Below, piece by piece: positions 30,650 to 49,226 of a stretch of 64,000 bases of DNA (positions are counted from its first letter, which is position 1; each line of letters starts with the position of its first letter). The notes below the pieces were generated by a model. The model saw only the letters and a program-made list of their open reading frames with translations, ran no database searches and was not told where the DNA came from. This stretch comes from Gammaproteobacteria bacterium (lineage in GTDB: Bacteria > Pseudomonadota > Gammaproteobacteria > Steroidobacterales > JABDLF01). The stretch is from NCBI GenBank assembly GCA_041565075.1, contig JBFGOQ010000006.1:724-64723 (forward strand), written 5' to 3'. The translations under genes were made by a program, and so were the position numbers.

Positions 30650-32431
30650 ATGTCGCCAGAAAACCGATGGTTAGCACTCATGACCGCGACTTTGCTCGTC
30701 GGCTGCGGCGGCAGCAGTGACCCGGTTCTTGCGCCGCCGCCCGATCCGCCTCCACCGACCACCGTGACACTGGACCTGGCGGCAGCCTCGACTGGGCAAG
30801 GACGTTTCAAGGCCGATGGCGGCGATTCCACGGGGCGCTTCGGTGTGCCGGTTGCCGCGGGCTTCGACATCGACGGCGATGGACTTGAGGATTTTGCCAT
30901 GTCGGCGATGCAGGCCTCACCGCTGGGCCGCTCGGGTGCTGGCCTGGTGTCGCTGATATTCGGTGACGGTTTTGTCCTGGGTGGCGTCGATACGGCCTTA
31001 CCCGACCCGCGTGTTCTGAAGATCTATGGCGCAGGACCCGCAGAGGCCACCGGAGGCGAGATCTGGATGGACGACGTCACCGGCGATGGTCTTGGCGATC
31101 TCATTATCGGCCGGTTCAATTACCGGGCGTCTGGCCCGGACAGGCCTGGCGCGGGTGCGCTGTCGGTTGTGGTCGGTAACGCTGCCTTACGGGACCTTGC
31201 TGACAACGGCCAGGTCCTCGACCTTGCAGCGCCACCGCCGTCGGTCAACGTACTGACGCTGGTGGGTGCCGGCACACTCGATCGTCTTGGATTCTGGCTG
31301 CGCAGCGGTGATATCACCGGCGATGGCGTCGCCGACATCGTGGTGGGCGCGGACCAGGCCGATCACAACAGTATTTCAAATAGCGGCCTGGTGTACGTGC
31401 TGCGCGGCGGCGCGCATCTGGACATGAACCTGGATGTGGATCTGGCCGATTTCGGCACCAGTTTGCTGGCTGGCCACCTTTTGAAAATCGAGCCGCCGGC
31501 CGGCGCTGCCGATTACCATTTTGGCGGTACGGTGAGCGTGGCAGACCTCGACGGCAACGGGCGTAGCGAATTGCTGATAGCCGCTGCGCTGTCGCGAGTG
31601 GGCGGATTGATAGAGGCTGATGGAGCGCCGCCGGGTTCAGCAGTGCGCAATGGCGGCAACCCAGGTGGCAGCCTTTTTATCGTCTGGGATGACAACATTC
31701 CGGCATCCGATCCCTGGATGCCAGGCCTGCGTTTCGCGGTGGATGCTGCACCAGGATCGGTGAGCCGGATTGACGGCGGCGTACTGAGCAATGTTTTCAC
31801 CAGTGAGCGTTTTGGTGAGGACCTGCTCGGTGGAGAAGACTACGATGCGGATGGCGATGTAGATCTGTATGTCGGTGACATAAAGGGTGACGCCAATGGC
31901 TTGTTGGATGCCGGCCTCGGTCATGTCCTGTTTTCGGCTGGACAACTGAAGGGTCTGAATTTCAACATAGGGTCACCGCCGCCGTCCGTGCGCATCAGCC
32001 ATATCCTCGGCCAATCGATCTCGTCAATCTCCGGGGATACCTCAGCACACGGTGACCTGGACAACGACGGCAACTTCGATCTGGTCGTTGCTTCGCCATT
32101 GGCGGATCCCCTGGGCCGCACGGATGCAGGAATCGTGCACGTTTTGTGGGGTCAGTCAGGACCGTGGCCGGCGGTCATCGATCTGGCTGCAGGCCGGCGG
32201 CCCGACCCGGCACAGTTTCTGATTACCGACATTCTTGGTGCGCGCGGGCGCACATCCAGCGAAGATGAAGGCGATACCCTCATGTATAGCGCTGCCTGGG
32301 GCGATGTCGATGCCGACGGACGCACAGACCTGGTAATCAATGAGATGCGCGGCAATGGCCGGGATCCCGCAGCGCTGGACGTCGGCAACTTGCTGATAAT
32401 CGGCGGCAGCGCGATTCCCAAAGGCATGTAA
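30650..32431 (+). CDS. FG-GAP (integrin-alpha-like) repeat lipoprotein
   Basis: Lipobox LLVGC. At least seven Ca-binding-type repeats (DIDGDGLEDF, DVTGDGLGDLIIG, DITGDGVADIVVG, DLDGNGRSELLIA, DYDADGDVDLYVG, DLDNDGNFDLVVA, DVDADGRTDLVIN). Confidence 0.85.
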   Translation: MSPENRWLALMTATLLVGCGGSSDPVLAPPPDPPPPTTVTLDLAAASTGQGRFKADGGDSTGRFGVPVAAGFDIDGDGLEDFAMSAMQASPLGRSGAGLVSLIFGDGFVLGGVDTALPDPRVLKIYGAGPAEATGGEIWMDDVTGDGLGDLIIGRFNYRASGPDRPGAGALSVVVGNAALRDLADNGQVLDLAAPPPSVNVLTLVGAGTLDRLGFWLRSGDITGDGVADIVVGADQADHNSISNSGLVYVLRGGAHLDMNLDVDLADFGTSLLAGHLLKIEPPAGAADYHFGGTVSVADLDGNGRSELLIAAALSRVGGLIEADGAPPGSAVRNGGNPGGSLFIVWDDNIPASDPWMPGLRFAVDAAPGSVSRIDGGVLSNVFTSERFGEDLLGGEDYDADGDVDLYVGDIKGDANGLLDAGLGHVLFSAGQLKGLNFNIGSPPPSVRISHILGQSISSISGDTSAHGDLDNDGNFDLVVASPLADPLGRTDAGIVHVLWGQSGPWPAVIDLAAGRRPDPAQFLITDILGARGRTSSEDEGDTLMYSAAWGDVDADGRTDLVINEMRGNGRDPAALDVGNLLIIGGSAIPKGM

Positions 32432-35157: not shown

Positions 35158-35688
35158 TTACCAATCTCGTCCGGTTTGATCATCTGGAGTTTTCGGGGAC
35201 AGCGATTGCAGGTAGCGGAATAAGCTACGTGCGTGTGCCGGCGGCTTGTCATTGGCGCGCTCAAACTGCGCCAGGCGCACCAGCTGGCGAACGTGCTGGC
35301 GATCGGCGCCGGGAAATTCCTCGAGCAATTGTCCGAGCAGCGCGTCGCCCTGTTCCACAAGTCGGTCACGCCAGGTCTCCAGGTGATGAAAACGCCGTGC
35401 CGCCTGCTTCTGATCGGCGCTTTCTTTTGCCAGCGCCGCCTGCACGCCGCTGGCATCGATTTCGCGCATCAGCCGACCGATGTACTGACGTTGCCGATAA
35501 AGCGCCCGTCTGCTTTTCATCTGGCGGGCAGTCATGACCGCCTCGCGCAGGACATCGGGCATCGGAATCGCAAGCAAGCGGGCCTGGGGCATATCGATCA
35601 GCTGCTCGCCAAGCTTTTGCAGCGCAGCGCTTTCCCGTTTCAGCTGGGATTTGCTGGGCCCCCCATCCTTTGCATTGGATTCAGTCAT
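35158..35688 (-). CDS. yjgA: Ribosome-associated protein YjgA (DUF615 / DarP)
   Basis: SKSQLKRESAALQKLGEQL.., RRALYRQRQYIGRLMRE. The start overlaps the upstream gene's stop by 4 nt. Confidence 0.9.
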   Translation of the reverse strand: MTESNAKDGGPSKSQLKRESAALQKLGEQLIDMPQARLLAIPMPDVLREAVMTARQMKSRRALYRQRQYIGRLMREIDASGVQAALAKESADQKQAARRFHHLETWRDRLVEQGDALLGQLLEEFPGADRQHVRQLVRLAQFERANDKPPAHARSLFRYLQSLSPKTPDDQTGRDW

Positions 35689-36932
35689 AGCGCGCGATCG
35701 AGCGCGCCGATAAGGCGCTCGACTTCCTTGCCGGTGTTGTAGTGCACGAGCGAAGCCCGCACCACGCCGTTCTGCGGAGCGAGTCCGAGGTGCTCAATCA
35801 GTCGCGGCGCATAAAAATGTCCCCAGCGAATCGCGATCTTGTGCGGATCTATTGCCGGCGGGATGGTTGCCGAATCGCGATCTGCCACCACGAATGAAAT
35901 AGTCGGCGTGCGCACTGCCGAAGCCGCCGACGGATTGCCGATGATCCGAACCCGCGGGTGGCCGTCAAGAAATTCCAGCAACGGAGCAGCGATGCTTGCT
36001 TCGTGACGGCTGATCCAGTCCACGGCAAATTTCATTTTTACCTGGTCATCCCCCCCATCGGGTGCGCCGGCAGCCACACCGAGTTCATGGTAGTACTCGG
36101 GAATACCGCCACTTGCGTAAGCGAGTTCATAATTCACGCCGCCGGGTTGCAACTTGAGGGGCACATCGCCGGCTTCAAAAAAGTAGTGGTTGATGTTGTC
36201 CAGCGCTTCCAGCAGTGGCCGCTTGCCAATCATTACAGCCTGGTGCGGTCCATAGACCTTGTACAGGCTGAAGGTGTAGTAATCGACATCCCAGGCTTGC
36301 ACGTCAATGGCATGATGGGGCGCATAAGCGACGCCATCAACGCACACTTGCGCATTGCGCTCATGAACGAACCGGGTTATCTCGGCCACCGGTTCGATAC
36401 TGCCAAGTATGTTTGACGTGTGCGTAAAGCACACGAGTCGCGTGCGCGCGTTCATGAGCGTCCCGAGATCGTCCAGTTCCAGACGCAGGCTGTCACGATT
36501 GAGTTCCCAGGTACGCAGCACGATGCCGCGTTCGGCGAGCCGGCACCATGGGCTGATATTGGCCTCGTGATCGACGTTGGTCACGATAATCTCGTCGCCC
36601 TTGTGCAGACGAGGTGCGAGCGCGCGTGACAGGCGGGAAATGAGCGCGCTGGTCGATGGTCCCAGGATTATCTCGGCCGGATCCCGCGCATTGGTGAATC
36701 GGGTAAGCGCTGCCACGGACGCGTCCAGGCGTTGTTGGGCGAGCATGGAGACTTCGTAGCTGGCGCCCAGCTGGACCGGGCATTCGCGCAGGTAGCGTGT
36801 CGCGCGGTCGATCACGCGGCCGAGCGGCAGCGAGCCGCCGGCGTTGTCCATGAACACCCAGTCATTCGCGAGGCCGGGAAACTGAGCGCGCACGAAATCG
36901 AGGGTGGCGGACGGCGGTTCAGGCGGCTTCAT
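35685..36932 (-). CDS. Class-V PLP-dependent enzyme (cysteine-desulfurase-like, VC1184-type by recollection)
   Basis: Fold-type I features: TNVDHEANISPW and the putative PLP lysine in FSLYKVYGPH. 415 aa. Confidence 0.85.
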   Translation of the reverse strand: MKPPEPPSATLDFVRAQFPGLANDWVFMDNAGGSLPLGRVIDRATRYLRECPVQLGASYEVSMLAQQRLDASVAALTRFTNARDPAEIILGPSTSALISRLSRALAPRLHKGDEIIVTNVDHEANISPWCRLAERGIVLRTWELNRDSLRLELDDLGTLMNARTRLVCFTHTSNILGSIEPVAEITRFVHERNAQVCVDGVAYAPHHAIDVQAWDVDYYTFSLYKVYGPHQAVMIGKRPLLEALDNINHYFFEAGDVPLKLQPGGVNYELAYASGGIPEYYHELGVAAGAPDGGDDQVKMKFAVDWISRHEASIAAPLLEFLDGHPRVRIIGNPSAASAVRTPTISFVVADRDSATIPPAIDPHKIAIRWGHFYAPRLIEHLGLAPQNGVVRASLVHYNTGKEVERLIGALDRAL

Positions 36933-38598
36933 GTTGTTCCTTGTCTTTCAGCCAGGCGCGAATTTCGGTGGCATCCGCGAGGGCGAGCATGATCACGAGG
37001 TCGCCGCGTTCGGCGCGCTTCATCGCCAGTCTCAGCGACGCCATCTCGTTCGGACAATGCTCGATCTGGGCAGATGTCGCGCCGGCCTTTCTGAGGGCTC
37101 GCGACATGATGTCAAAGACTTCGCCGGCCTCACGGCCGCGGTAATACTTCTCAAGTTCCGAGATGACCACCAGGTCCAGGCCAATGGCCCAGGCGCTTTC
37201 CGCCAGACTCTCGATAGCGGAATCCGGTCTGTCGCCGGCCTGGCCGAAGCACAGCAAACGCCGCTTTGCGGGCAGTTTATGCGCGAGGTGAAAAAGAGCG
37301 TGCATGGCCTCAACATTGTGCGCGAAGTCGACCAGCACCTTGACGCCGTCCACCTCATAAAGATTGCATCGCCCCGGGTTGTCGCCGCGGCGCGTTTCCA
37401 GCAAGCCGCGACGAATAGCATCGTCCGCCAGACCAAGTGCGTTGGCGAGGCCGATAGCGCCCAGCGCGTTGGCAACGTTATGCTGTGCCGCACCGCCGAA
37501 AGTGATGGGAACGTCGGCGACCCGCGCAAGCCGTGTCCATTCGCCATTCACACCGCGGGCAAACTCGCCATCGATAACCGTCGTGACGCTGCCGCCCTCT
37601 GCAAAATGACTGCGCAGCGCCGGCGCATCGGCGTCGGGGCTGAAAAAACACAGACGCTTGCCGGCATTTTCGGCGCGCGCCACCAGCAGTGGATCGTCGG
37701 CATTTATTACCAGCGGGCGTTCGTCATCAAGCGCGCGCGCGACCACCCACTTGATGTCCAGCAGCTCGGCAAGACTGCGGGAGCCGAAATCACCCAGGTG
37801 GTCCTCCGAAATATTGGTGATGAGCGCTGCGTCGGCATGCTCGACAGCAAGACCACGTCGCAGGAGGCCGCCGCGTGCAGTCTCGAGGATCGCGATTTCA
37901 ACCTGCTGATGGCGCAGCACGGTGCGGGCGCCGCCCGGACCGGCATAGTCACCCTCGTCAATAATCTCACTGCCCACCGCCATCCAGTCAGTGGATGTCA
38001 GGCCGCAGGTCTTGCCCGCGGCAGCGGCCATGTTGGCCACCAGCCTCGACGAGGTGGTTTTGCCATTGGTACCGGTGATCAGTCCGACAGGAATGTCGCA
38101 AAGGACCGCCCAGTCCACGTCCCGTGGCGTCGGGACCGCGCTCGCTGCCCAGCTGCGCGAATGCCGACCGAGCCCCAACGAGACCTCGTCATCATCCACC
38201 AGGCAGCTAACCGACTTTGCCCTGGCGGCGGCCAGCAGGTCTATGAGCCGCGGGTTTCGCTCTTGCGCTATGGAATTTCTCAGTGCGACCAGCAATGCGT
38301 CCTCGCCGCCGGTTGCTTTGCCAATATGCAAAGCCCACGCTGCTTCGAGAATTTCGGTGGCCGCATAAAGGGCGTCGAGCGGGGCCGAGACGGCAAGGCT
38401 GATGCCGCCGCTGCACTTGCGCGCCGCGAGCCCTTCTTCTGCCCATCCCACGGCTGCCAGCAGGCCTTCGAGCCGGTCGGCGAGCGCAGCGATCAGTTCG
38501 CCGGCCTGGTCGTCGTCACAGGCGATGTCCAGCACCGCGCCGGGGTGATCCCAGATCACGTTCGGGCCGGTCAGGCGGCGGCAGTCCAGAACCTCCAC
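36919..38598 (-). CDS. CphA paralogue lacking the ATP-grasp domain (N-domain-like region + Mur-ligase-like M domain)
   Basis: The first ~165 aa resemble the CphA N domain (RRLTGPNVIWDHPGAVLDI vs TNVYVGPNVYARFPVIRHVLDLG). The sequence then runs directly into GLITGTNGKTTSSRL..ILETARGGLLRRGL..ISEDHLG. That stretch parallels the CphA M domain ITGTNGKTTTARM..VLETARGGMLRSGL..VASDHLG. Confidence 0.85.
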   Translation of the reverse strand: MEVLDCRRLTGPNVIWDHPGAVLDIACDDDQAGELIAALADRLEGLLAAVGWAEEGLAARKCSGGISLAVSAPLDALYAATEILEAAWALHIGKATGGEDALLVALRNSIAQERNPRLIDLLAAARAKSVSCLVDDDEVSLGLGRHSRSWAASAVPTPRDVDWAVLCDIPVGLITGTNGKTTSSRLVANMAAAAGKTCGLTSTDWMAVGSEIIDEGDYAGPGGARTVLRHQQVEIAILETARGGLLRRGLAVEHADAALITNISEDHLGDFGSRSLAELLDIKWVVARALDDERPLVINADDPLLVARAENAGKRLCFFSPDADAPALRSHFAEGGSVTTVIDGEFARGVNGEWTRLARVADVPITFGGAAQHNVANALGAIGLANALGLADDAIRRGLLETRRGDNPGRCNLYEVDGVKVLVDFAHNVEAMHALFHLAHKLPAKRRLLCFGQAGDRPDSAIESLAESAWAIGLDLVVISELEKYYRGREAGEVFDIMSRALRKAGATSAQIEHCPNEMASLRLAMKRAERGDLVIMLALADATEIRAWLKDKEQHEAA

Positions 38599-38613
38599 GG
38601 CTTAAGTCTCCGC

Positions 38614-41400
38614 CTAATCCGCTTCTTCGCGAGCGATGCGCACGCCGCGTTCGTCGCGAATGATCTCGAGGTCGGCCGGCAACTCAAAGCCAGGCACGTC
38701 CATGGTTTGCACGCGTGCCATGCCGCCGGTTTGGTCGCTGCCGGCATGTTCCCCTGGCTTGAAGTAAATAATCTGCTTCCAGCAGCGCTTGATCTTGTCG
38801 CCGAGTACCAGGACTACATCGCCCGGACCGGCAAGTTCCAGCGCACGCTGGGTAGCCTCCTGTTCGTCCGGGATGATGTGAATGCTGTCGTCAGGGACAT
38901 CGTTGGCCAGCAGGGTCTTGCGTAACATCTGCGGCACTTCGTCGTCACCGCGCCCGCGTCGATAGTCATCGCGTCGACAGACATAGATATCGAAATGTCC
39001 CGCTGCGGCGGTCGCGATTTCCTCGACATCTTCGTCGCGGCGATCGCCCGGTGCGGCGAGCACGACAATGCGCCTGCCGGTGACCTCGAGACGGTCGATG
39101 ACGTCGCACATGGCTTTGACGGCCGCCGGGTTGTGCGCGTAATCGAGAATAACCTTGAAAGGATGCTCATCAAATACATTCATGCGACCCGGCGCCTGGA
39201 AGAAATTGCTGCCGAAAGTCCGCAGGCCCTGAATGATATGTTCCAGGCTGACCTCCATGTTATAGGCCAGGGCGGCGGCAAACATGGCGTTTTGCACGTT
39301 ATGGGTCGCGCGACCTTCGAGGGTGGCCGGAATGAGATGCGTCCACATGAGCGGTATGTGCCGCATGTTGTCATAGATGGTAATCATGTAGCCGTTCATG
39401 CCCTGCTCGAGGACGACGGCCCGCCCGCCTGCCTGGATGTGTTCTTTGACCAGCGGGTGAGCCGGATTCATGGTGACGTAGCAGACATGGCGTGCGTCGG
39501 TATAGTCCGCCATTTGCAGGCAACGGGGATCATCGGCGTTGAGAACGGCCGCCACCTGGGCGACTTCCACGGGCACGCGCTTGAGTTCAGCCAACTGGTC
39601 AAGCGTGTCGATACCCTTGAGGCCAAGATGATCCGACGCGACGTTCAGGCAGCAGGCCACATCGCACTCGCTGAAGCCCAGCCCGCTGCGCAGCATGCCG
39701 CCACGCGCAGTTTCGAGTACCGCGGCGTCAATCATGGGATCCCGCAGGATCATGCGCGCGGAAATCGGGCCGGTCATGTCACCTTCTACCGATAACTGCC
39801 CATCAATGTAAACGCCATCCGTGGTTGTCAGCCCGACAACATGGCCTTTCATCTTGAGTACATGTGCCAGCATTCGCGCGGTGGTGGTCTTGCCATTGGT
39901 GCCGGTAATGGCTGCGATTGGAATACGACTGGCAGCCCCTGGCGGGAACAGCATCTCCACGACAGGTCCCGCCACGTCCCGCGGCGACCCTTCACTGGGC
40001 GCCACATGCATACGGAACCCCGGGCCCGCATTGACCTCACAAATGCCGCCACCGGTTACGCGATAAGACTCGGCGATATCGGAGGTGAGGAAATCCACGC
40101 CGCCCACGTCGAGACCTATGGCCATGATCGCGCGAATGGCCATTTCCTGGTTGTCGGGATGAATGATGTCGGTAACGTCGATGGCGGTGCCGCCGGTTGA
40201 TAAATTGGCGGTGGAACGCAGGAATACGACCTCGTCTTCTGATGGCACGGACTGCCGGTCATATCCCATCTGGCCCAGCAGCCGGTCAGCCTGATGATCG
40301 AACTCCAGGCGCGTCAGCACTTTCTCATGGCCAACGCCACGGCGCGGATCCTTGTTTACCTCCTCGACAAGTTGTTCGACCGTCGAACTGCCATCACCGA
40401 CGACATGCCCCGGTACACGCTTGGCCGCCGCCACCACTTTGCCGTTGACCACCAGAATCCGATGATCCATGCCGTCGATATAGGACTCCACGACCACGGT
40501 GCGCCCGTGTTCGCGGGCCTTTTCGAAAGCCACGCTGACTTGTTCGTCAGTATTGAGGTTGATGGATACGCCACGGCCATGATTGCCGCTGAGTGGCTTC
40601 AGCACTACCGGGAATCCTATGCGATTGGCTGCGCGCACGGCTTGCGTGGCCGTCTGCACCATAATTTGCTTTGGAACGGGCAGGCCCAGGTCCCGCAGAA
40701 TTGCGTTGGTTTCTTCCTTGTCCGAGGCCAGATCGACACCGATATTCGAGGTGTTGCTGGTGACGGTAGCCTGGATGCGCTTTTGAAAACGGCCATGCCC
40801 GAGTTGCAGCAAGCTATAGCGATTTAATCGTATCCATGGAATGCCCTTTGCTTCCGCTGCACGCGCAATCGATGCTGTACTTGGGCCGAGCTCGCGTCGC
40901 TGCGCGTACTTGATGAACTGGTCGCGTTCCTGATTGAAGTCCCAGTCGTCGCCGGGTGCCTGCGCCGGTCGCAGCTGTGCCGGCAGCAGGTAGTGCAGGA
41001 TATCGAGAGCGATACGCCCGGCCTCGCGACCCACAGCTTCGTCATGATATTCGAATACCATATTGTAGAAGCCGGGCTGGCCGTCTACCGAGCGGGTGCG
41101 GCCGAAACTCACATCGGAACCCGCGACGTTTTGCAGTTCGATGGCTACATGCTCCATGACATGACCGAGCCACGTGCCCTGATCTTCGCGCATGCGCCTT
41201 ACAAAGCCGCCTGGCTCCCGGTAGGAGCAACCGTGTTTGTTGAGTCCGGGTAACATCTCCAGCAGGCGCTCTATATATTCAGCGCCGAGCCGCGAGGTTG
41301 GCCAGGCCTCCAGTTCGCCGAGGTCGAGGACATGTCGGATAACAGGGAATCGGGCATAGACGTTTGGCCCTACATAAACATTGGTCTCGGTTATTCTCAT
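38614..41400 (-). CDS. cphA: Cyanophycin synthetase
   Basis: 928 aa. It has an N domain, an ATP-grasp region (VVLKPLSGNHGRGVSINL, ICEVNAGPG) and a Mur-ligase-like M domain (AITGTNGKTTTARM). Confidence 0.95.
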   Translation of the reverse strand: MRITETNVYVGPNVYARFPVIRHVLDLGELEAWPTSRLGAEYIERLLEMLPGLNKHGCSYREPGGFVRRMREDQGTWLGHVMEHVAIELQNVAGSDVSFGRTRSVDGQPGFYNMVFEYHDEAVGREAGRIALDILHYLLPAQLRPAQAPGDDWDFNQERDQFIKYAQRRELGPSTASIARAAEAKGIPWIRLNRYSLLQLGHGRFQKRIQATVTSNTSNIGVDLASDKEETNAILRDLGLPVPKQIMVQTATQAVRAANRIGFPVVLKPLSGNHGRGVSINLNTDEQVSVAFEKAREHGRTVVVESYIDGMDHRILVVNGKVVAAAKRVPGHVVGDGSSTVEQLVEEVNKDPRRGVGHEKVLTRLEFDHQADRLLGQMGYDRQSVPSEDEVVFLRSTANLSTGGTAIDVTDIIHPDNQEMAIRAIMAIGLDVGGVDFLTSDIAESYRVTGGGICEVNAGPGFRMHVAPSEGSPRDVAGPVVEMLFPPGAASRIPIAAITGTNGKTTTARMLAHVLKMKGHVVGLTTTDGVYIDGQLSVEGDMTGPISARMILRDPMIDAAVLETARGGMLRSGLGFSECDVACCLNVASDHLGLKGIDTLDQLAELKRVPVEVAQVAAVLNADDPRCLQMADYTDARHVCYVTMNPAHPLVKEHIQAGGRAVVLEQGMNGYMITIYDNMRHIPLMWTHLIPATLEGRATHNVQNAMFAAALAYNMEVSLEHIIQGLRTFGSNFFQAPGRMNVFDEHPFKVILDYAHNPAAVKAMCDVIDRLEVTGRRIVVLAAPGDRRDEDVEEIATAAAGHFDIYVCRRDDYRRGRGDDEVPQMLRKTLLANDVPDDSIHIIPDEQEATQRALELAGPGDVVLVLGDKIKRCWKQIIYFKPGEHAGSDQTGGMARVQTMDVPGFELPADLEIIRDERGVRIAREEAD

Positions 41401-42251
41401 GCGTCTTCCCCGCGCGGCTTGCTGATATCGGGCGCAGCGCTGGCCCGCCGGGAGGCAATTTCGAAATGGCCGCCAGCCACCAGAATGTGCAGGCGTACGC
41501 CAATCAGGCTGACTGGTTGATCGCGGCGCGCCTTGGCCATGGAGGAATGCTCGATTTCCGATGGATCTACGATGGTGATGCCGCCGCTGCCGACGACGTC
41601 AAGGGTATCGCCTGGCCGGATAAAAGCAGCAGTGTCCTCGTCGAGGCCGATGCCGACCGCGAATGGGTTGTAGGCGAGCGCAGTCAGCAGACGGCCGAGG
41701 CGGTCGCGCTGTCTGAAATGCTGGTCAATGATGAAGTTGTTGGTGAGCCCCAGACCCGGCGCCAGGGTCACCATGTTGGGGCTGGGTGTGCTGCCTTCGA
41801 GACCGCCGGCAATCATGTGCTCCGGCATGAAGGCCGCACCGGCAGAAGTGCCGGCCACATGCATGCCGGCGGCGTTCTGACGGCGAATGGCCTGGGCGAC
41901 TTTGGTGCCCCCCAGAGTGGTGGACAGGCGCAGCTGGTTGCCGCCGGTCATGAAGACGCCATCCGCTTCTTCGATAGCGCCAATATGTTGCTGCGCGTTG
42001 CAGTCCGCCCGTGTTTCGATGGGCAGGACATGTGCATGATCGACACCCAGGCGACGAAACAGGCGCTCGTAACGCTTGCCGGTGTCGGCTCTCTGGGATG
42101 CGGTGGGTATGATAGCCACCCGCGCACGCCTGCCACCGCACAAGCCGACAAATTTTTCGAGAATTTCGGGGTTGTTGAATTTTTCCTCGGCACCACCGAT
42201 CGGCACGATGTGTCCGCGCTCATTGCTGGGATGACTGGGTGACGGGCACAT
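41397..42251 (-). CDS. cphB: Cyanophycinase (peptidase S51), no signal peptide
   Basis: IVPIGGAEEK, FMTGGNQLRL and the catalytic-Ser context VAGTSAGAA. The stop overlaps the cphA start (ATGA). Confidence 0.92.
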   Translation of the reverse strand: MCPSPSHPSNERGHIVPIGGAEEKFNNPEILEKFVGLCGGRRARVAIIPTASQRADTGKRYERLFRRLGVDHAHVLPIETRADCNAQQHIGAIEEADGVFMTGGNQLRLSTTLGGTKVAQAIRRQNAAGMHVAGTSAGAAFMPEHMIAGGLEGSTPSPNMVTLAPGLGLTNNFIIDQHFRQRDRLGRLLTALAYNPFAVGIGLDEDTAAFIRPGDTLDVVGSGGITIVDPSEIEHSSMAKARRDQPVSLIGVRLHILVAGGHFEIASRRASAAPDISKPRGEDA

Positions 42252-43436
42252 TCAGATTTGCTCCTCGCACTGGTCTTCTTCGAACCTTCCGGCCACCACC
42301 TGGATGTTGTCGCGCAGGTGCCAGCGCCCCCTCGCCATGACGCCGTTAACCTTCAGCTCATCGTCGAGTACCACGAGGTCGGCATCGTTGCCCACCGCGA
42401 TGGCGCCTTTGCCGGCAAGGCGCAACAGGCGGGCCGGATTGGTGGTAATACTTGGCAATACCTGTGCCAGCGTCAGGCCGCGGCCCACTGCGCGGCGCAG
42501 CATGTCCGCCAGTGCACCAGGCTGGCCGACATCCATGCTTAACATTTCACCGTGCTTGTCGAAAACCGGCAGACAGCCGCCACCGTCGGAGCTGACCGTG
42601 ACATGGGCCGCCGGTGCGCCGCTTTCAAGATAACGGTACAAGGCCTCGTCTGCCCACCATGCGTCGTCTGCCTGGTCCACCGGAAAAGCAGTCAGATCTA
42701 TGGTGCATCCTGCATGCGCCAGTTCCAGTGCCTCGTCAAACAGGGCGCGCTTGCGGTTCACATGTGTGGGATTAAATACTCTGGCGGGCAGTTCGCTGCC
42801 GGCCAGAGCCGCGCGCACCAGTTCCAGACCGCGCGCACCGTCACCGAGGTGCAAATGTAAAATACCCGCCTTGCGGCTGATGAGTCCGGCGACATGAACT
42901 TCGCTGGCCAGGCGCAGGATTTCGTCAAGTGTTGGCTGGCTGGAACGGTGGTCACTGATAGCGATTTCACCGGCTCCTATTACAGGGTCCAGGAAAACGA
43001 TATCGTCGCGTGCGCTGCCGGTAAGTGTTACAGGTGGCAAATGATAACCACCTGTATGACACCAGGCCGACAGGCCTTCTTCCCGCAGCGCCTGCGCACA
43101 GGCAAGCAAATCCCGCGTATGGCGCGTGCAGTCGTCGGTGCCAAGAACGCCCACAACGCTGGTCACGCCAGCGCGGGTGTAGCGCGACAGGCCCAGCGGC
43201 GGCACTCGTGATGCAAAACCGCTCTCGCCGCCGCCCCCGGTAAGATGTACATGCCCGTCGATGAAGCCGGGCACAACACGGTGGCCCTGCACATCGAGCG
43301 AAGGCGTGCCAGCAGGCACAGCAGGCACATCCTCGCCCATCCAGACGATTTTTTCGCCGGCAATGACGAGCTGCTTCAGGCCTTGCTCGTCCGGCGCAAA
43401 GACGCGGGCATTCAGGATCAGAGACAGCGGTTTCAT
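42252..43436 (-). CDS. iadA: Isoaspartyl (beta-aspartyl) dipeptidase
   Basis: PGFIDGHVHLTGGGGESG and AGVTSVVGVLGTD align closely with E. coli IadA. Confidence 0.92.
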   Translation of the reverse strand: MKPLSLILNARVFAPDEQGLKQLVIAGEKIVWMGEDVPAVPAGTPSLDVQGHRVVPGFIDGHVHLTGGGGESGFASRVPPLGLSRYTRAGVTSVVGVLGTDDCTRHTRDLLACAQALREEGLSAWCHTGGYHLPPVTLTGSARDDIVFLDPVIGAGEIAISDHRSSQPTLDEILRLASEVHVAGLISRKAGILHLHLGDGARGLELVRAALAGSELPARVFNPTHVNRKRALFDEALELAHAGCTIDLTAFPVDQADDAWWADEALYRYLESGAPAAHVTVSSDGGGCLPVFDKHGEMLSMDVGQPGALADMLRRAVGRGLTLAQVLPSITTNPARLLRLAGKGAIAVGNDADLVVLDDELKVNGVMARGRWHLRDNIQVVAGRFEEDQCEEQI

Positions 43437-44934: not shown

Positions 44935-45927
44935 ATGTCTGAGCTCTATTATGCGGCTGCCTGCCAGACCGATTTCGAGAGTCCTGCGGAACGCGGGGAG
45001 ATCGCGGCGCGCACCCGTCGCATGTGCCAGATCGTCGAGCAAACGATAGTCGGATACGAGCCTTTTTTCGATGTCAGGCTGCTGGTCTTTCCCGAGTTTG
45101 CCCACGCGGTGCCCGCCTACGATTCCGCCCGGACCTTGCTCGAGAAGCTGGCTGTGGAAGTGCCAAACGAGCATACCGACGCCTACGAAAAACTGACCAG
45201 GAAATACGGCTGCTATATTCAGACCGGCACCTTTCTCGAGCGCGATCCGGCGTTTGCGGGCATGGTGTTCAATACCACCGTGCTGATAGGGCCAGGCGGT
45301 GTGCTGTGCAAGTACCGCAAGGTCAATCCGTGGATTCCCTGGGAGGTGCACACGAGCCCGCACGATATCGAAGACTATGATCTTGACCTGTTTCCTGTCG
45401 CAGATACCGAACTGGGCAAGCTCGGCGTCGCGATTTGTTATGACTGGCTGTTCCCCGAAGTTACGCGCCAACTCGCATTCAATGGCGCAGAAGTACTGAT
45501 ACGCCTCTCCGCTTACATGGATCCCTGGGGTGCGACGCCACCCATGGATTGGTGGACCCTGTTCAATCGGGCGCGAGCGGCGGAGAACACGGCCTTTGTC
45601 GTGGCCGCCAACCAGGGCGCCAGCCTCGAACACTATCCACCCTTCAGCTGGCCCGGTGGCAGTATGGTGGTCGATTTTGACGGGCGCATTCTCGCCCAGG
45701 CGGACCCGGGTCCAGGTGAGAAAGTAGTGGTCGCGCCGATCGATATCGGTGCTCTGCGGCATGAGCGTGCACGGCGGCAGGGCCACGATATGCGCAGTCA
45801 CCTGCGCAGTGAGGCTTACGATTACCTGGACGCGCCGAGACTGGGGAAAGCGGTGCCCGAGGATCACCCGCTTGAGGTCGAATCGTTGCGCCAGCGTATC
45901 AAGGCTGCGCGAGACAAGTTGTCATGA
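44935..45927 (+). CDS. Carbon-nitrogen hydrolase, aliphatic-amidase/formamidase-like
   Basis: E-K-C contexts LLVFPEFAH, CKYRKVNPWIPWE and AICYDWLFPE. The 330-aa length and the YRK..PW motif resemble AmiE/AmiF. Confidence 0.85.
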   Translation: MSELYYAAACQTDFESPAERGEIAARTRRMCQIVEQTIVGYEPFFDVRLLVFPEFAHAVPAYDSARTLLEKLAVEVPNEHTDAYEKLTRKYGCYIQTGTFLERDPAFAGMVFNTTVLIGPGGVLCKYRKVNPWIPWEVHTSPHDIEDYDLDLFPVADTELGKLGVAICYDWLFPEVTRQLAFNGAEVLIRLSAYMDPWGATPPMDWWTLFNRARAAENTAFVVAANQGASLEHYPPFSWPGGSMVVDFDGRILAQADPGPGEKVVVAPIDIGALRHERARRQGHDMRSHLRSEAYDYLDAPRLGKAVPEDHPLEVESLRQRIKAARDKLS

Positions 45928-48900
45928 TCATGCTGATCCGGCTGCGCGCGTTCGTATTGTCATCAGTGGCCTGTTTTCTGGTGGCGTGCAGCGCGCATGA
46001 TGCTGGCCCGGCATTAAGCGAACAGGATATCGCGGACAACAACCGCGGTGTCGGGCTCATGGGCTATTTCGACTACGAAGGAGCGCGCCAGATTTTTGCA
46101 CAACTCGCGCAGCGACATCCGCTGTGGCACGACGTGCAGGTGAATCTTGCGATTGCAACCCTGAATCGCCAGCAGCAGGGCGATGAACAGACTGCACTGG
46201 ATCTGGTGATGCAAGTTCTGCTGGCAAACCCCGAACACTTGCGCGCCCGTTACGTGGCAGGGCTGCTGCGGCTCAATGCCGGCGATTCTGCGATGGCCCT
46301 GGCGGATTTCGAGCACGTGGCCCGGGCCGATCCTGACGACCCTTTCGCGGCGTATTACAGCGCGCTGTGTCGCGCACAGCTGGGCGACGCCGAGCGGGCG
46401 CTTGCCGATTACCGGCGGGCGATCGAGCTCGATCCGTACTTGCGCAGCGCCTACTATGGGGCGTTCCAGGCCTTGCAGCGACTGAAGCGTCGCGAAGAAG
46501 CCAGGGAAATGCTGGCGCAATTCCAGCGCCTCGCTGACAACCCCCAGGCCCGCTTGGCCGAGTTCAAGTACACACGCATGGGGGACAAGGGCGCAGCGCA
46601 GGTCGTCAACCTGCAGGCACCTGCAGAAATCCAGCAGCCCGAAGGCGAATTGTTTGTCGCGGCCCGCCCTATGGCGGATCTGCCGCCGCTGGTGGGTGCG
46701 CAGGAGACGGCCATGACGGTTGCCGATGCGAATGGCGATGGCGTTCTTGATCTTTATATCGCCCAGACTGCCAACGGCAGCTTGCTGGTGACAGGTGGCG
46801 CAGACGGTACTTTCACAATGCAGGCGCAGCACAAACTTTCTGGTATCGCCAACGTTCGGGCGGCATTGTGGGGCGACGTCGACAATGATGGCCTGCTCGA
46901 TGCCTACCTGTTACGCGACGGCCCGAACCAGCTATGGCAGCAGGTTGCACAGGGCGAATGGCGGGACGTCAGTGAAACCTCTGCCAGCAGTGGTGGCGAC
47001 ACGGACAGCATCGATGGCGCAATGTTCGACGCCGACCACGACGGTGACCTCGATATATTTGTTATCAACGCCGATGCTCCGGTGGAACTTTTCAATAACA
47101 ACCTGGATGGCACATTTCGTCCGCTGGCGAAGACCCAGGATTTGGCGCGCAGCGGGCGGCGTGCGCGCAGCGTAGTGGTTACTGACCTGGATCATGACCG
47201 CGACACCGATATCCTGGTGGTCTATGCATCGCCACCGCATGACGTGTTCCTGAATGACCGCTTGTGGGCTTACCGCAGTGCACAGGACATGGCACTGTTC
47301 AGCGAGGCAAGCCTTGCGGCCGCCGTGGCTGGCGACGTCGATGCCGACGGCAGTGCCGAAATTTATGCCATTGCCGAGGATGGCGCGCTGCTCAGGTTTA
47401 CGCGCGCAGCAAGTCACGCCTGGCAACAAGAGAGCCTGGCCCCGGCCGGCACGGCGAGTGCCGCAGGGATTGCTCAGCTTGCGCTTGCCGACCTGGATGG
47501 CGACGGGCGTCAGGAACTTATTTATTCCATCGACGAAGGTTGGCAGGTTGGCCGTCTCGATGGCGAAGGTTTTGAGCCTGGTTTCACCGGCAAGCTCGGT
47601 TCGCACGGGCATTGGTTGCTGGCCAACCTCGAGCTGCCCGCGGGCCCGTCAATAATCGGGGCCGTAAATGACGGGCCGCCGTTGATCTGGAAGCCGGGCC
47701 GGGGACGCCACGCTTTCATCGGGCTCAGCTTCACGGGGCTCGAGGAAAAAGCCGAGTCGATGCGCTCCAATGCATCGGGCATCGGTACACGCGTCGACCT
47801 GCGCATTGATTCGCGATGGCGCTCGCATGACACCCTGCGCAACCACACTGGGCCCGGGCAGAGCCTGCAGCCATTGTTTGTCGGCGCGGGCGGTTATGAA
47901 AGCATCGACTACGTCGCTCTGACATGGTCGGACGGTGTTTTTCAAACCGAGCTGGGGCTGCGCCCCGGGACCCTGCACAAGATCACCGAAACCCAGCGAC
48001 AGCTGTCGAGTTGCCCGGTGCTGTTTGCCTGGGACGGGGAAAAGTTCGCCTTCGTCAGTGATCTGCTGGGCGTCGGCGGAATTGGATTCAATACCGGCTT
48101 CGGACAGTATGCGACGCCACGGCCGTGGGAGTTTTTTCTGCTTCCCCGGAACAGTGTCAGGGACCATGCAGGCAGCATTGAGCTGAAAATTGCGGAACCC
48201 ATGGAAGAGGTCGCCTATATCGATACTGCACGGCTGCGGGCCTATTCGTTGCCTGCTGGCTGGCAAATGGTCCTGGACGAACGCATGGGGCTGTCTGAAC
48301 CGCTGCCGAGCGGGCGAGCAATTTTTTACCGCACCGAAAGCCTGCCCGTCAGCGCACGCAATGACAGGGATGCCGACGTCCTGGCTGCGCTCATGGCAGC
48401 AGATGGCAGTGCTGCGCCCGTAGGAGAAAGAGATCGGCGCTTTATTGGCCGCCTCGCCGAGCAACATGTTCTGGAACTCGAATTTCCGGCGCCACTGAAT
48501 GATGAGCAGCGCATCCCGTGGCTGGTTGTGGATGGTTGGGTGGAGTACCCGTATTCGCAAACCGGCTTTGCGGCCTGGCAGGCCGGTGCTGCCTTCGAAG
48601 CCCCGAGCCTCGCAGCCGGCAATGCAGCGGGCGAGTGGGTCGAAATTGCCCACCAGTTCGGCTACCCGGCGGGCATGCCACGGCGCATGGCCTTCCCGCT
48701 CGACAAACTGCCGGCAGCAACCACGCGCCTGCGACTTGCGACCAATCTCGAGGTCTATTGGGACCGCATTTCGGTCGTGTTTGAAGAACCTGCGCCTGAT
48801 GAGCTGCAAGTGGAAGAATTAACCTTGCTGAAAGCAGTGCTTGAGGCTCCGGGTTTTCCTTTGCGTAAAGATGGCCCACAACGCCGCCCGGACTATGATT

Positions 48901-49226
48901 TTGACCGCAGGACGCCGTTATGGGACACACGCCATCCCAAGGGCCATTACACGGCCTTCGGTGATGCTACCGAACTTGTGGCCGCTAACGATGACGCGCT
49001 CGCAATAGTCGGACCGGGCGAGGCGCTGTCGTTGACCTTTGCCGCACCAACGCGGGCCGGGGGGCAGACGCACCTGGTTTTGGAAGCCAGGGGATGGGCC
49101 AAGGACATGGATCTGTATACCAATAGCGGCGGTACGGTGGGCCCGCTGCCCGCCCTGGGCCTTGATCCGACGCGACGCGAGGCATTGCACGAGCGTTACA
49201 ATACGCGGTTTGAAGCCGGCTACTGA
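45924..49226 (+). CDS. TPR + FG-GAP/VCBS + UnbV/ASPIC-like lipoprotein (1100 aa)
   Basis: Lipobox FLVAC. TPR region at about aa 30-200. FG-GAP repeats (DANGDGVLDLYIA, GDVDNDGLLDAYLL, DADHDGDLDIFVI, DLDHDRDTDILVV, GDVDADGSAEIYA, DLDGDGRQELIY). UnbV-like segment SNASGIGTRVDLRI. The start overlaps the upstream stop (ATGA). Confidence 0.85.
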   Translation: MIMLIRLRAFVLSSVACFLVACSAHDAGPALSEQDIADNNRGVGLMGYFDYEGARQIFAQLAQRHPLWHDVQVNLAIATLNRQQQGDEQTALDLVMQVLLANPEHLRARYVAGLLRLNAGDSAMALADFEHVARADPDDPFAAYYSALCRAQLGDAERALADYRRAIELDPYLRSAYYGAFQALQRLKRREEAREMLAQFQRLADNPQARLAEFKYTRMGDKGAAQVVNLQAPAEIQQPEGELFVAARPMADLPPLVGAQETAMTVADANGDGVLDLYIAQTANGSLLVTGGADGTFTMQAQHKLSGIANVRAALWGDVDNDGLLDAYLLRDGPNQLWQQVAQGEWRDVSETSASSGGDTDSIDGAMFDADHDGDLDIFVINADAPVELFNNNLDGTFRPLAKTQDLARSGRRARSVVVTDLDHDRDTDILVVYASPPHDVFLNDRLWAYRSAQDMALFSEASLAAAVAGDVDADGSAEIYAIAEDGALLRFTRAASHAWQQESLAPAGTASAAGIAQLALADLDGDGRQELIYSIDEGWQVGRLDGEGFEPGFTGKLGSHGHWLLANLELPAGPSIIGAVNDGPPLIWKPGRGRHAFIGLSFTGLEEKAESMRSNASGIGTRVDLRIDSRWRSHDTLRNHTGPGQSLQPLFVGAGGYESIDYVALTWSDGVFQTELGLRPGTLHKITETQRQLSSCPVLFAWDGEKFAFVSDLLGVGGIGFNTGFGQYATPRPWEFFLLPRNSVRDHAGSIELKIAEPMEEVAYIDTARLRAYSLPAGWQMVLDERMGLSEPLPSGRAIFYRTESLPVSARNDRDADVLAALMAADGSAAPVGERDRRFIGRLAEQHVLELEFPAPLNDEQRIPWLVVDGWVEYPYSQTGFAAWQAGAAFEAPSLAAGNAAGEWVEIAHQFGYPAGMPRRMAFPLDKLPAATTRLRLATNLEVYWDRISVVFEEPAPDELQVEELTLLKAVLEAPGFPLRKDGPQRRPDYDFDRRTPLWDTRHPKGHYTAFGDATELVAANDDALAIVGPGEALSLTFAAPTRAGGQTHLVLEARGWAKDMDLYTNSGGTVGPLPALGLDPTRREALHERYNTRFEAGY

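Follow-up and report, generated by a model that had tools for sequence, protein, structure and literature searches.

The window analysed here, a stretch of 64,000 nucleotides (nt) from contig JBFGOQ010000006.1 of a Gammaproteobacteria bacterium (assembly GCA_041565075.1), carries a cluster of cyanophycin genes on its minus strand. The last gene of this cluster, here called X, encodes a paralogue of cyanophycin synthetase (CphA) in which an N domain is followed by a Mur-ligase-type M domain and the ATP-grasp (G) domain is missing. This architecture had been proposed from the letters of the DNA alone (the sequence-only reading), and it is borne out by the sequence, profile and fold evidence.

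The cluster begins with iadA and cphB, the genes for an isoaspartyl dipeptidase and a cyanophycinase, and continues with cphA1 and X (Table 1). In the CphA1 of the window, Pfam recognises Cyanophycin_syn, ATP-grasp families, Mur_ligase_M and Mur_ligase_C. The start assigned to X (MEVLD.RRLTGPN) is consistent with all homologues in the alignment. Its GTG follows the TAG stop codon of cphA1 after 15 nt, with a GGAG element 9 nt ahead of the GTG, and promoter and terminator scans of the intergenic stretch remained at chance level, with no signal above it. On the opposite strand, X and the end of cphA1 are overlapped by a stop-free open reading frame (ORF) of 673 aa (window 36904-38925, plus strand); in all likelihood it is not a gene but a long antisense frame as is common in coding DNA with about 61% G+C.

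Table 1. Features of the cyanophycin cluster and of loci named in the text (window positions unless a locus is given).
Feature	Coordinates	Strand	Details
iadA, isoaspartyl (beta-aspartyl) dipeptidase, first gene of the cluster	42252..43436	-	TIGR01975 392.8 bits, cutoff 331
cphB, cyanophycinase (S51 peptidase)	41397..42251	-	TIGR02069 260 bits, cutoff 126.6
cphA1, 928 aa	38614..41400	-	N, G and M domains intact, HVMEH; TIGR02068 1146 bits, cutoff 850
cphA1-X junction, 15 nt	38599..38613	-	GGAG Shine-Dalgarno-like element; reads TAG gcGGAGacttaagcc GTG
X, G-less CphA paralogue, 559 aa	36919..38598	-	GTG start; intact ORF
X residues 1-115, reduced CphA-type N domain	38254..38598	-	beta1-beta2-helix-hairpin-helix-helix; no HxxEH
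X residues 116-151, Gcore remnant	38146..38253	-	first helix and three strands; hhalign against CphA1 165-211
X residues 152-167, linker of 16 residues	38098..38145	-	in place of CphA1 ~212-488
X residues 168-400, Mcore	37399..38097	-	P-loop TGTNGKTT (38053-38076), T203, E239, D266-H267, H373-N374
X residues 401-559, Mlid (Mur_ligase_C)	36922..37398	-	N407-P408-G409-R410, D424-x-A-H427-N428, G455-D456-R457, R487-G488-R489
Class-V aminotransferase / cysteine-desulfurase-like gene	35685..36932	-	Aminotran_5; TIGR01976 328 bits, below cutoff 352
Kribbella G-less N+M protein	L012 7413-9251	+	N domain ELRVLDGPNLYF... joined straight to the M domain
Tandem cphA paralogue pair	L013 3678-9137

Domain architecture of X

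The M domain of X is complete (residues 168-540), and its nearest relatives are the M domains of CphA1. Pfam matches Mur_ligase_M (PF08245) at residues 174-385 with 79.1 bits and Mur_ligase_C (PF02875) at residues 409-537 with 50.2 bits, both above cutoff, and the cyanophycin synthetase model of NCBIfam (TIGR02068) scores 339 bits against a cutoff of 850, aligning at model positions 478-848 only. By BLASTP, residues 138-538 of X align with residues 455-866 of the neighbouring CphA1 at 32% identity (E 1e-50); across CphA1 M domains the identity ranges from 32 to 40%. The best solved structure by sequence is the CphA1 7lg5 (E 4e-60, X 168-538 against 487-855), with the Mur ligases far lower.

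The motifs quoted for the M domain in the sequence-only reading (ITGTNGKTT, ETARGG, DHLG) are all present, the P-loop TGTNGKTT at residues 175-182 and the other two in invariant alignment columns. We mapped the catalytic residues through an ungapped alignment to the CphA1 of Synechocystis and the roles described for the CphA1 of Trichodesmium (TeCphA1; PMC9427784). K499, T500, T522, E558 and N497 of TeCphA1 correspond to K180, T181, T203, E239 and N178 of X, while F692, R731 and H748 correspond to H373, R410 and H427. None of the eight X residues varies among 20 aligned family members, whose overall identity is only about 50%, and the position of F692 is a His in the window CphA1 as well. Between 30 X-family proteins and 76 CphA1 M domains, 59 positions are jointly conserved, including the P-loop, T203, E239, DH, PGR, H427 of D-x-A-H-N, GDR and RGR. 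A loss of key ATP and substrate residues, which the sequence-only reading had considered, is not what we found: the ATP/Mg residues are all present and invariant, and this invariance, together with the 59 positions conserved jointly with CphA1, implies that the gene has not decayed. Judged from the alignments, the ATP/Mg site is intact and under purifying selection; the 20 sequences have 145 invariant columns, a conservation far beyond chance.

The N-terminal part of X was harder to assign. Residues 1-167 gave nothing by BLASTP, Pfam (even at E<=1; no match to PF18921) or NCBIfam, and a profile of this N module searched against all PDB sequences returned chance matches only (best E 0.19), with no CphA among them. 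In profile-profile comparison with 69 CphA1 N termini (hhalign) the module aligned at E 1e-4 to 4e-4. The alignment pairs MExLDxRRLTGPN of X with MkIxxxRxLRGPN of CphA1 (RRLTGPN / LRGPN) and DEVSLGLGRHSRSW of X with SLLQLGHGRFQKRI of CphA1, matching the earlier pairing by eye; over the latter part the consensus is NPxLLxLxxAAxxHxVxFLxDDDEVSLGLG for X and GPSTxxIVxAAxxRGIPxxRLNxxSLVQLGxG for CphA1.

Using AlphaFold2 we obtained a model of full-length X with a pLDDT of 89.2 and a pTM of 0.87. It best matches whole CphA1 chains (7wae, 7lgj and 7lg5; E ~1e-36), with a query-normalised TM score (TMq) of 0.80 over ~875 target columns as compared with ~0.5 for MurC-F, which indicates that both ends of X superpose on CphA1 in the same mutual arrangement, with the G domain skipped. 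The model of the N module alone (residues 1-168, pLDDT 92.1) has eight PDB matches at E<=1e-3 (E 1e-5 to 6e-4, TMq 0.50-0.60); six of them are CphA1 chains and two are CphA2 chains, with no protein other than cyanophycin synthetases. The alignments with CphA1 extend over ~205 columns, implying an insertion of ~40 residues in CphA1 relative to the N module of X, and this is the region that bears the HxxEH metallopeptidase motif. The HxxEH site makes primers in most CphA1 enzymes and renders them primer-independent (PMC9262961); no HxxEH is found in the sequence of X residues 1-167. For the homology of the module to the CphA N domain, the profile-profile support is weak and the fold comparison of the predicted models strong.

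Residues 116-151 of X (PRLIDLLAAARAKSVSCLVDDDEVSLGLGRHSRSWA) are paired by hhalign with CphA1 165-211, and the Gcore of TeCphA1 starts at residue 162 (PMC9427784). The sequence-only reading had paired two segments of X with the CphA N domain; the RRLTGPN part of that pairing stands, whereas the VSLGLGRHSRSW segment corresponds to the first Gcore strands. Likewise, the proposed N domain is there, but in a reduced form without the HxxEH peptidase helix, and X retains a G-domain remnant of 36 aa. This remnant contains a family-specific invariant acidic motif, DD(D)xxSxGxG, and opposite its DD(D) hhalign places RLNR of the window CphA1.

In terms of CphA numbering, X 1-151 equals CphA 1-211 and X 168-538 equals CphA 489-866. 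Where an omission of about 300 aa had been estimated, ~277 CphA1 residues (~212-488, comprising Glid, G-omega and most of Gcore) have given way to a linker of 16 residues. Pfam and NCBIfam find no ATP-grasp match in X, as compared with ten ATP-grasp families matched by the neighbouring CphA1, and a diverged ATP-grasp fold hidden in the N-terminal part, for which the earlier reading had allowed, did not appear: residues 1-168 significantly match only the folds of CphA1 and CphA2 in the PDB (N domain and start of Gcore). Because the ATP-grasp G domain is missing, X is predicted to be unable to elongate the cyanophycin backbone.

Within the N module, 30 of the 167 columns are invariant, and the column identity is 0.64 as against 0.73 in the catalytic part. 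The invariant residues include D5, R7, R8, L9, T10, G11, P12, D24, C27, W52, D75, Y78, E85 and W88, and further invariant charged residues are E113, D135 and D136. The homologue from Luteimonas lutimaris (L015 8252-8589) carries an insertion of ~70 aa in the variable segment of the module between residues 88 and 130.

The X family and its gene neighbourhood

A word-indexed search retrieved more than 120 full-length homologues of X (555-610 aa), with 95-100% coverage and identities from 50% upwards. With the N module as query, phmmer matched 546 clusters (50% identity) at E<=1e-3 and 298 at E<=1e-10 among 1.84 billion representatives. In the 150 best of these matches listed, the full-length members are all 552-620 aa long with the module always N-terminal, and no protein of CphA1 length occurs. 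The homologues that bear names are called 'Mur ligase', 'UDP-N-acetylmuramyl tripeptide synthase' or 'cyanophycin synthetase'; Pfam and NCBIfam recognise X only as a Mur ligase.

Gene order was compared in the 16 loci with any DNA upstream of the X homologue, which represent 15 distinct proteins with 36-56% identity to X of the window. A cphA1 gene, full-length or truncated by the contig end, neighbours X in 16 of the 16 loci, and cphB precedes cphA1 in every locus that extends far enough upstream. Most often the genes are arranged as (iadA)-cphB-cphA1-X, where X closes the cluster after a junction of 7-15 nt (7-12 nt in L001, L081 and L082); iadA is also found upstream in L002, L004, L081, L082 and L084. 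The carriers span four phyla, with Gammaproteobacteria, Myxococcota, Planctomycetota and Acidobacteriota, and include gammaproteobacterial metagenome-assembled genomes (MAGs), Lysobacterales, Luteimonas lutimaris, Steroidobacteraceae, Planctomycetaceae, Thermoanaerobaculia and, among the Myxococcota, Plesiocystis pacifica SIR-1 and Nannocystis.

Two loci depart from this order. In a Planctomycetaceae MAG (L004 6007-8001) two unrelated ORFs of 236 and 405 aa lie between cphA1 and X, and in a Thermoanaerobaculia MAG (L005 9759-12544) cphB-cphA1 is convergent with X. The X protein of the former has NEGR in place of the otherwise invariant NPGR. The CphA1 of the latter was matched only piecewise (residues 1-246 and 403-737), which could reflect a degraded gene or an assembly problem.

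The strict adjacency and the short junctions, which may reflect translational coupling, would suit an obligate subunit of a CphA1 hetero-oligomer, in which X would either contribute extra M sites or regulate or stabilise the complex. X still has the N module and the initial strands of Gcore, and the CphA1 tetramer is built through contacts of Mcore with the N domain and Gcore of neighbouring protomers (PMC9427784); moreover, tandem cphA pairs with one reduced copy are found elsewhere (L059 and L013). The inserted genes of L004 and the convergent arrangement of L005 argue against such an obligate partnership, and the invariance of the catalytic residues makes a purely structural or otherwise non-catalytic role unlikely. 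On balance we regard the hetero-oligomer as rather unlikely.

The partner CphA1 proteins keep all catalytic residues and HxxEH, and their few clade-specific substitutions fall at none of the catalytic residues named in the cited papers. The idea that X compensates for a defective partner was rejected on these grounds. At their C-terminus (window 38614-38670, minus strand) the CphA1s of this clade have a variable linker and then, at the extreme end, a conserved motif ..(I/L)xxDERGV(R)(I/L)A.., which is missing from the CphA1s of Cyanobacteria, Bacteroidota, Betaproteobacteria and Actinobacteria. We considered this ..DERGVRIA.. tail as a docking peptide specific for X and rejected it, since it is also present in the CphA1s of Tatumella and Acinetobacter (7lgn, 7lgm) and in L066, where the gene with the tail has no adjacent X.

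On the other side of X, the class-V aminotransferase gene starts with an ATG inside the end of X, the two genes sharing 14 nt. The aminotransferase gene was rejected as a member of the cluster because it is missing 3' of X in the other loci; in L084 an Aminotran_5 gene lies ~4.5 kb downstream. The region is flanked by genes for FG-GAP repeat proteins at 30650-32431 and 45924-49226 (both plus strand), one protein of 593 aa and the other of 1100 aa with N-terminal TPR repeats, which are, as far as seen, unrelated to the cyanophycin cluster.

Relatives of X and known systems

The partner CphA1s are 55-74% identical to the CphA1 of the window and form a clade of their own in 80 of 100 bootstrap replicates of a neighbour-joining tree of M domains. 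X does not branch inside this clade, which implies that it is not a recent local duplicate. The tree joins X with G-less proteins of Actinobacteria with weak bootstrap support (29/100 for the joint group, 37/100 for X and 70/100 for the actinobacterial proteins); reasonable support exists only for the partner CphA1s as a separate clade, and a single origin of the G-domain loss is not established.

These G-less proteins make up a second N+M family of ~545-730 aa, found in Actinomycetota and in a Sphaerobacteraceae MAG (Chloroflexota). Besides the Kribbella gene (Table 1), which follows fabG/inhA-like genes, it is represented in L008, L010, L011, L019, L020, L043, L050, L051 and L056. Of ten 17-kb loci with such a gene, six also contain a cphA1, often a few kb away and on the opposite strand. 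Some members have a C-terminal TPR_5 domain, and otherwise Pfam sees Mur domains only. As in X, the N domain leads directly into the M domain, with G223 and N407 in common and R248 in most members. Unlike X, this family has no Gcore remnant and is not encoded directly 3' of cphA1, and its N domain is clearly CphA1-like by sequence (hhalign probability 97%, E 4e-11).

Given the Mur-ligase names in the public databases and the Pfam annotation, which sees Mur domains only, we also considered X as a decaying cphA duplicate or as a misplaced or misannotated peptidoglycan Mur ligase. X does have the Mur_ligase_M/C fold, the P-loop, the Mg ligands and the DH and HN motifs in common with MurE, MurF and the other Mur ligases. 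However, it has no UDP-MurNAc-binding N-terminal domain, its N terminus being a CphA N domain instead; its fold is closer to CphA1 than to the Mur ligases, its best sequence matches are CphA1 rather than MurC-F, and its Mur equivalog scores are all far below their cutoffs (murE 87.6 vs 257 bits). X is a member of the Mur-ligase superfamily and not one of MurC-F. The constant length across hundreds of clusters, the number of invariant columns and the position of X outside the clade of adjacent CphA1s likewise speak against decay, and we take both versions of this explanation to be refuted, with hardly any probability left to them.

In comparison with CphA1 (7lg5, 7wae and window 38614-41400), X has the N-domain fold, the ATP/Mg residues of the M domain, the relative placement of N and M and the operon in common, and it is without the ~277 residues of the ATP-grasp G domain and without HxxEH. 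G223, N407, R248 and the DD(D) motif set it apart from CphA1. X thus agrees with CphA1 in its N and M domains and departs from it in the G domain, in HxxEH and in the curated score of 339 bits, which is under the TIGR02068 cutoff.

CphA2 consists of N and G together with an M domain that is truncated and inactive (PMC10273328), in agreement with the sequence-only reading, where X had been described as the opposite truncation. Like X, CphA2 (PDB 8fxi) is a CphA paralogue reduced to a single catalytic domain, has an N domain that is not a peptidase and is encoded beside a CphA1-type metabolism; X is its mirror image, with G gone and M complete including Mlid, whereas CphA2 keeps G and has an inactive M. 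CphA2 polymerises beta-Asp-Arg, which X is not expected to do. The tandem cphA/cphA' pairs of Betaproteobacteria (L059 of Nitrosomonas europaea, and L013) resemble the X locus in having two CphA-family genes, one of them reduced, but both of their copies keep the G domain; in L059 (4318-9143) the shorter, first copy matches CphA 1-658 and loses the M end.

To our knowledge, neither the architecture of X nor the second G-less family has been described. The sequence-only reading had left room for an earlier characterisation, and searches of the freely accessible literature, including a 2023 bioinformatic survey of cyanophycin genes, yielded no description of a G-less architecture. A 2025 phylogeny of Mur domains noted only two divergent sequences, annotated 'MurE/MurF', that group with CphA, and the name 'CphA3' led only to an Aeromonas beta-lactamase.

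Proposed function of X and its alternatives

X is a candidate additional enzyme of cyanophycin-based nitrogen storage and may be a catalytically competent, stand-alone side-chain-ligating half of cyanophycin synthetase that acts in trans on cyanophycin. The sequence-only reading had likewise suggested that X could add Arg or another amine to chains made by CphA, or else serve as a partner subunit. This is the reading we prefer; based on sequence comparison and predicted structures, we hold it tentatively, at somewhat short of even confidence. X would be translated from one operon with CphA1 (iadA-cphB-cphA1-X). The C-terminal region of the cyanophycin chain would bind, as in CphA1, in a groove that the N module of X forms with its Mcore, and X would spend ATP to activate the free beta-carboxylate of the aspartate added by CphA1. 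It would then ligate an amino acid, most likely arginine, to the activated carboxylate in trans. X would neither extend the backbone, having no ATP-grasp site, nor make primers, having no HxxEH site. It is the preservation of both modules and of their arrangement that makes binding of cyanophycin chain ends, and ligation to the aspartate beta-carboxylate, the most likely activity.

Several observations weigh against this proposal. The M domain of the partner CphA1 is intact, so that there seems to be little need for a mere second arginine ligase. X and the G-less proteins of Actinobacteria differ from CphA1 at three positions: G223, which is Ser in 96% of CphA1s; N407, which is Thr or Ala in CphA1; and R248, which is fixed in X and common to most of the actinobacterial proteins. 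These differences may point to a different substrate or binding geometry. In addition, helix 29-56, the equivalent of the region that tethers the polymer, is the least conserved part of the N module (column identity 0.50). CphA1 genes of the same clade without X downstream also exist (L066 and L045), which implies that X is accessory and not required. Finally, the window comes from a marine metagenome that is represented by DNA runs only.

Some of the same observations are what would be expected of a neofunctionalised X that makes a chemically different polymer, placing another residue (Lys, Orn, citrulline, Glu or the like) on aspartate beta-carboxylates or using another carboxylate, such as the alpha-carboxylate left free on side-chain arginines or that of unmodified aspartates inside the chain. 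A second M domain kept across phyla beside an intact one suggests a different job, G223, N407 and R248 are fixed in X and mostly common to the actinobacterial G-less family but not found in CphA1, and the remnant of Gcore has its invariant acidic DD(D) patch where the window CphA1 has RLNR. Against it, X has the RGR, GDR and PGR motifs of its Mlid in common with CphA1, and no gene in the neighbourhood supplies an unusual amino acid. We consider neofunctionalisation possible but doubtful. The broader proposal that X and its actinobacterial counterpart constitute a third class of cyanophycin enzyme, not recognised before, which would decorate or edit the chains made by CphA1 with something other than the canonical single arginine, we judge from the sequences to be unlikely; its options, taken together at that same strength, are another amino acid in place of arginine, a second layer of branches attached to the alpha-carboxylate of arginine and the filling of gaps at internal aspartates.

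The dipeptide-handling enzymes encoded in the operon, CphB and IadA, and the poor conservation of the tethering-helix region would also fit an X that acts on small molecules, for example joining free amino acids into beta-Asp-Arg or a different isopeptide that would serve as primer or recycling intermediate. But the partner CphA1 keeps HxxEH, the site of primer independence (PMC9262961), the model of X retains the CphA1-like arrangement of N and Mcore, and dipeptide synthesis beside the IadA dipeptidase would be a futile cycle. A role of this kind appears improbable, and side-chain ligation in trans on cyanophycin remains the reading that we prefer.

X is a real and widespread variant inside the cyanophycin synthetase family, uncharacterised so far, for which we infer the function given above. 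Cyanophycin biosynthesis is currently described with two enzymes, CphA1 (N, G and M) and CphA2 (N, G and a dead M), and a widespread N+M protein behind cphA1 would be the missing complementary reduction. In curated databases X bears only a generic Mur-ligase label, and a survey of cyanophycin genes would therefore overlook it. If active in trans, X would be a side-chain ligase that occurs on its own in nature, with which the mechanisms of the two half-reactions could be studied apart, and it could help to engineer derivatives of cyanophycin or polyaspartate with altered side chains. Its function could be tested directly in two carriers that can be cultured, Luteimonas lutimaris JCM 16916 and Plesiocystis pacifica SIR-1. 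X may also be a reason why heterotrophic bacteria differ in the composition, solubility or turnover of their polymer, and if a third enzyme class does exist, the storage polymer of many heterotrophs in the sea and in soil would differ chemically from the cyanophycin of the textbooks.

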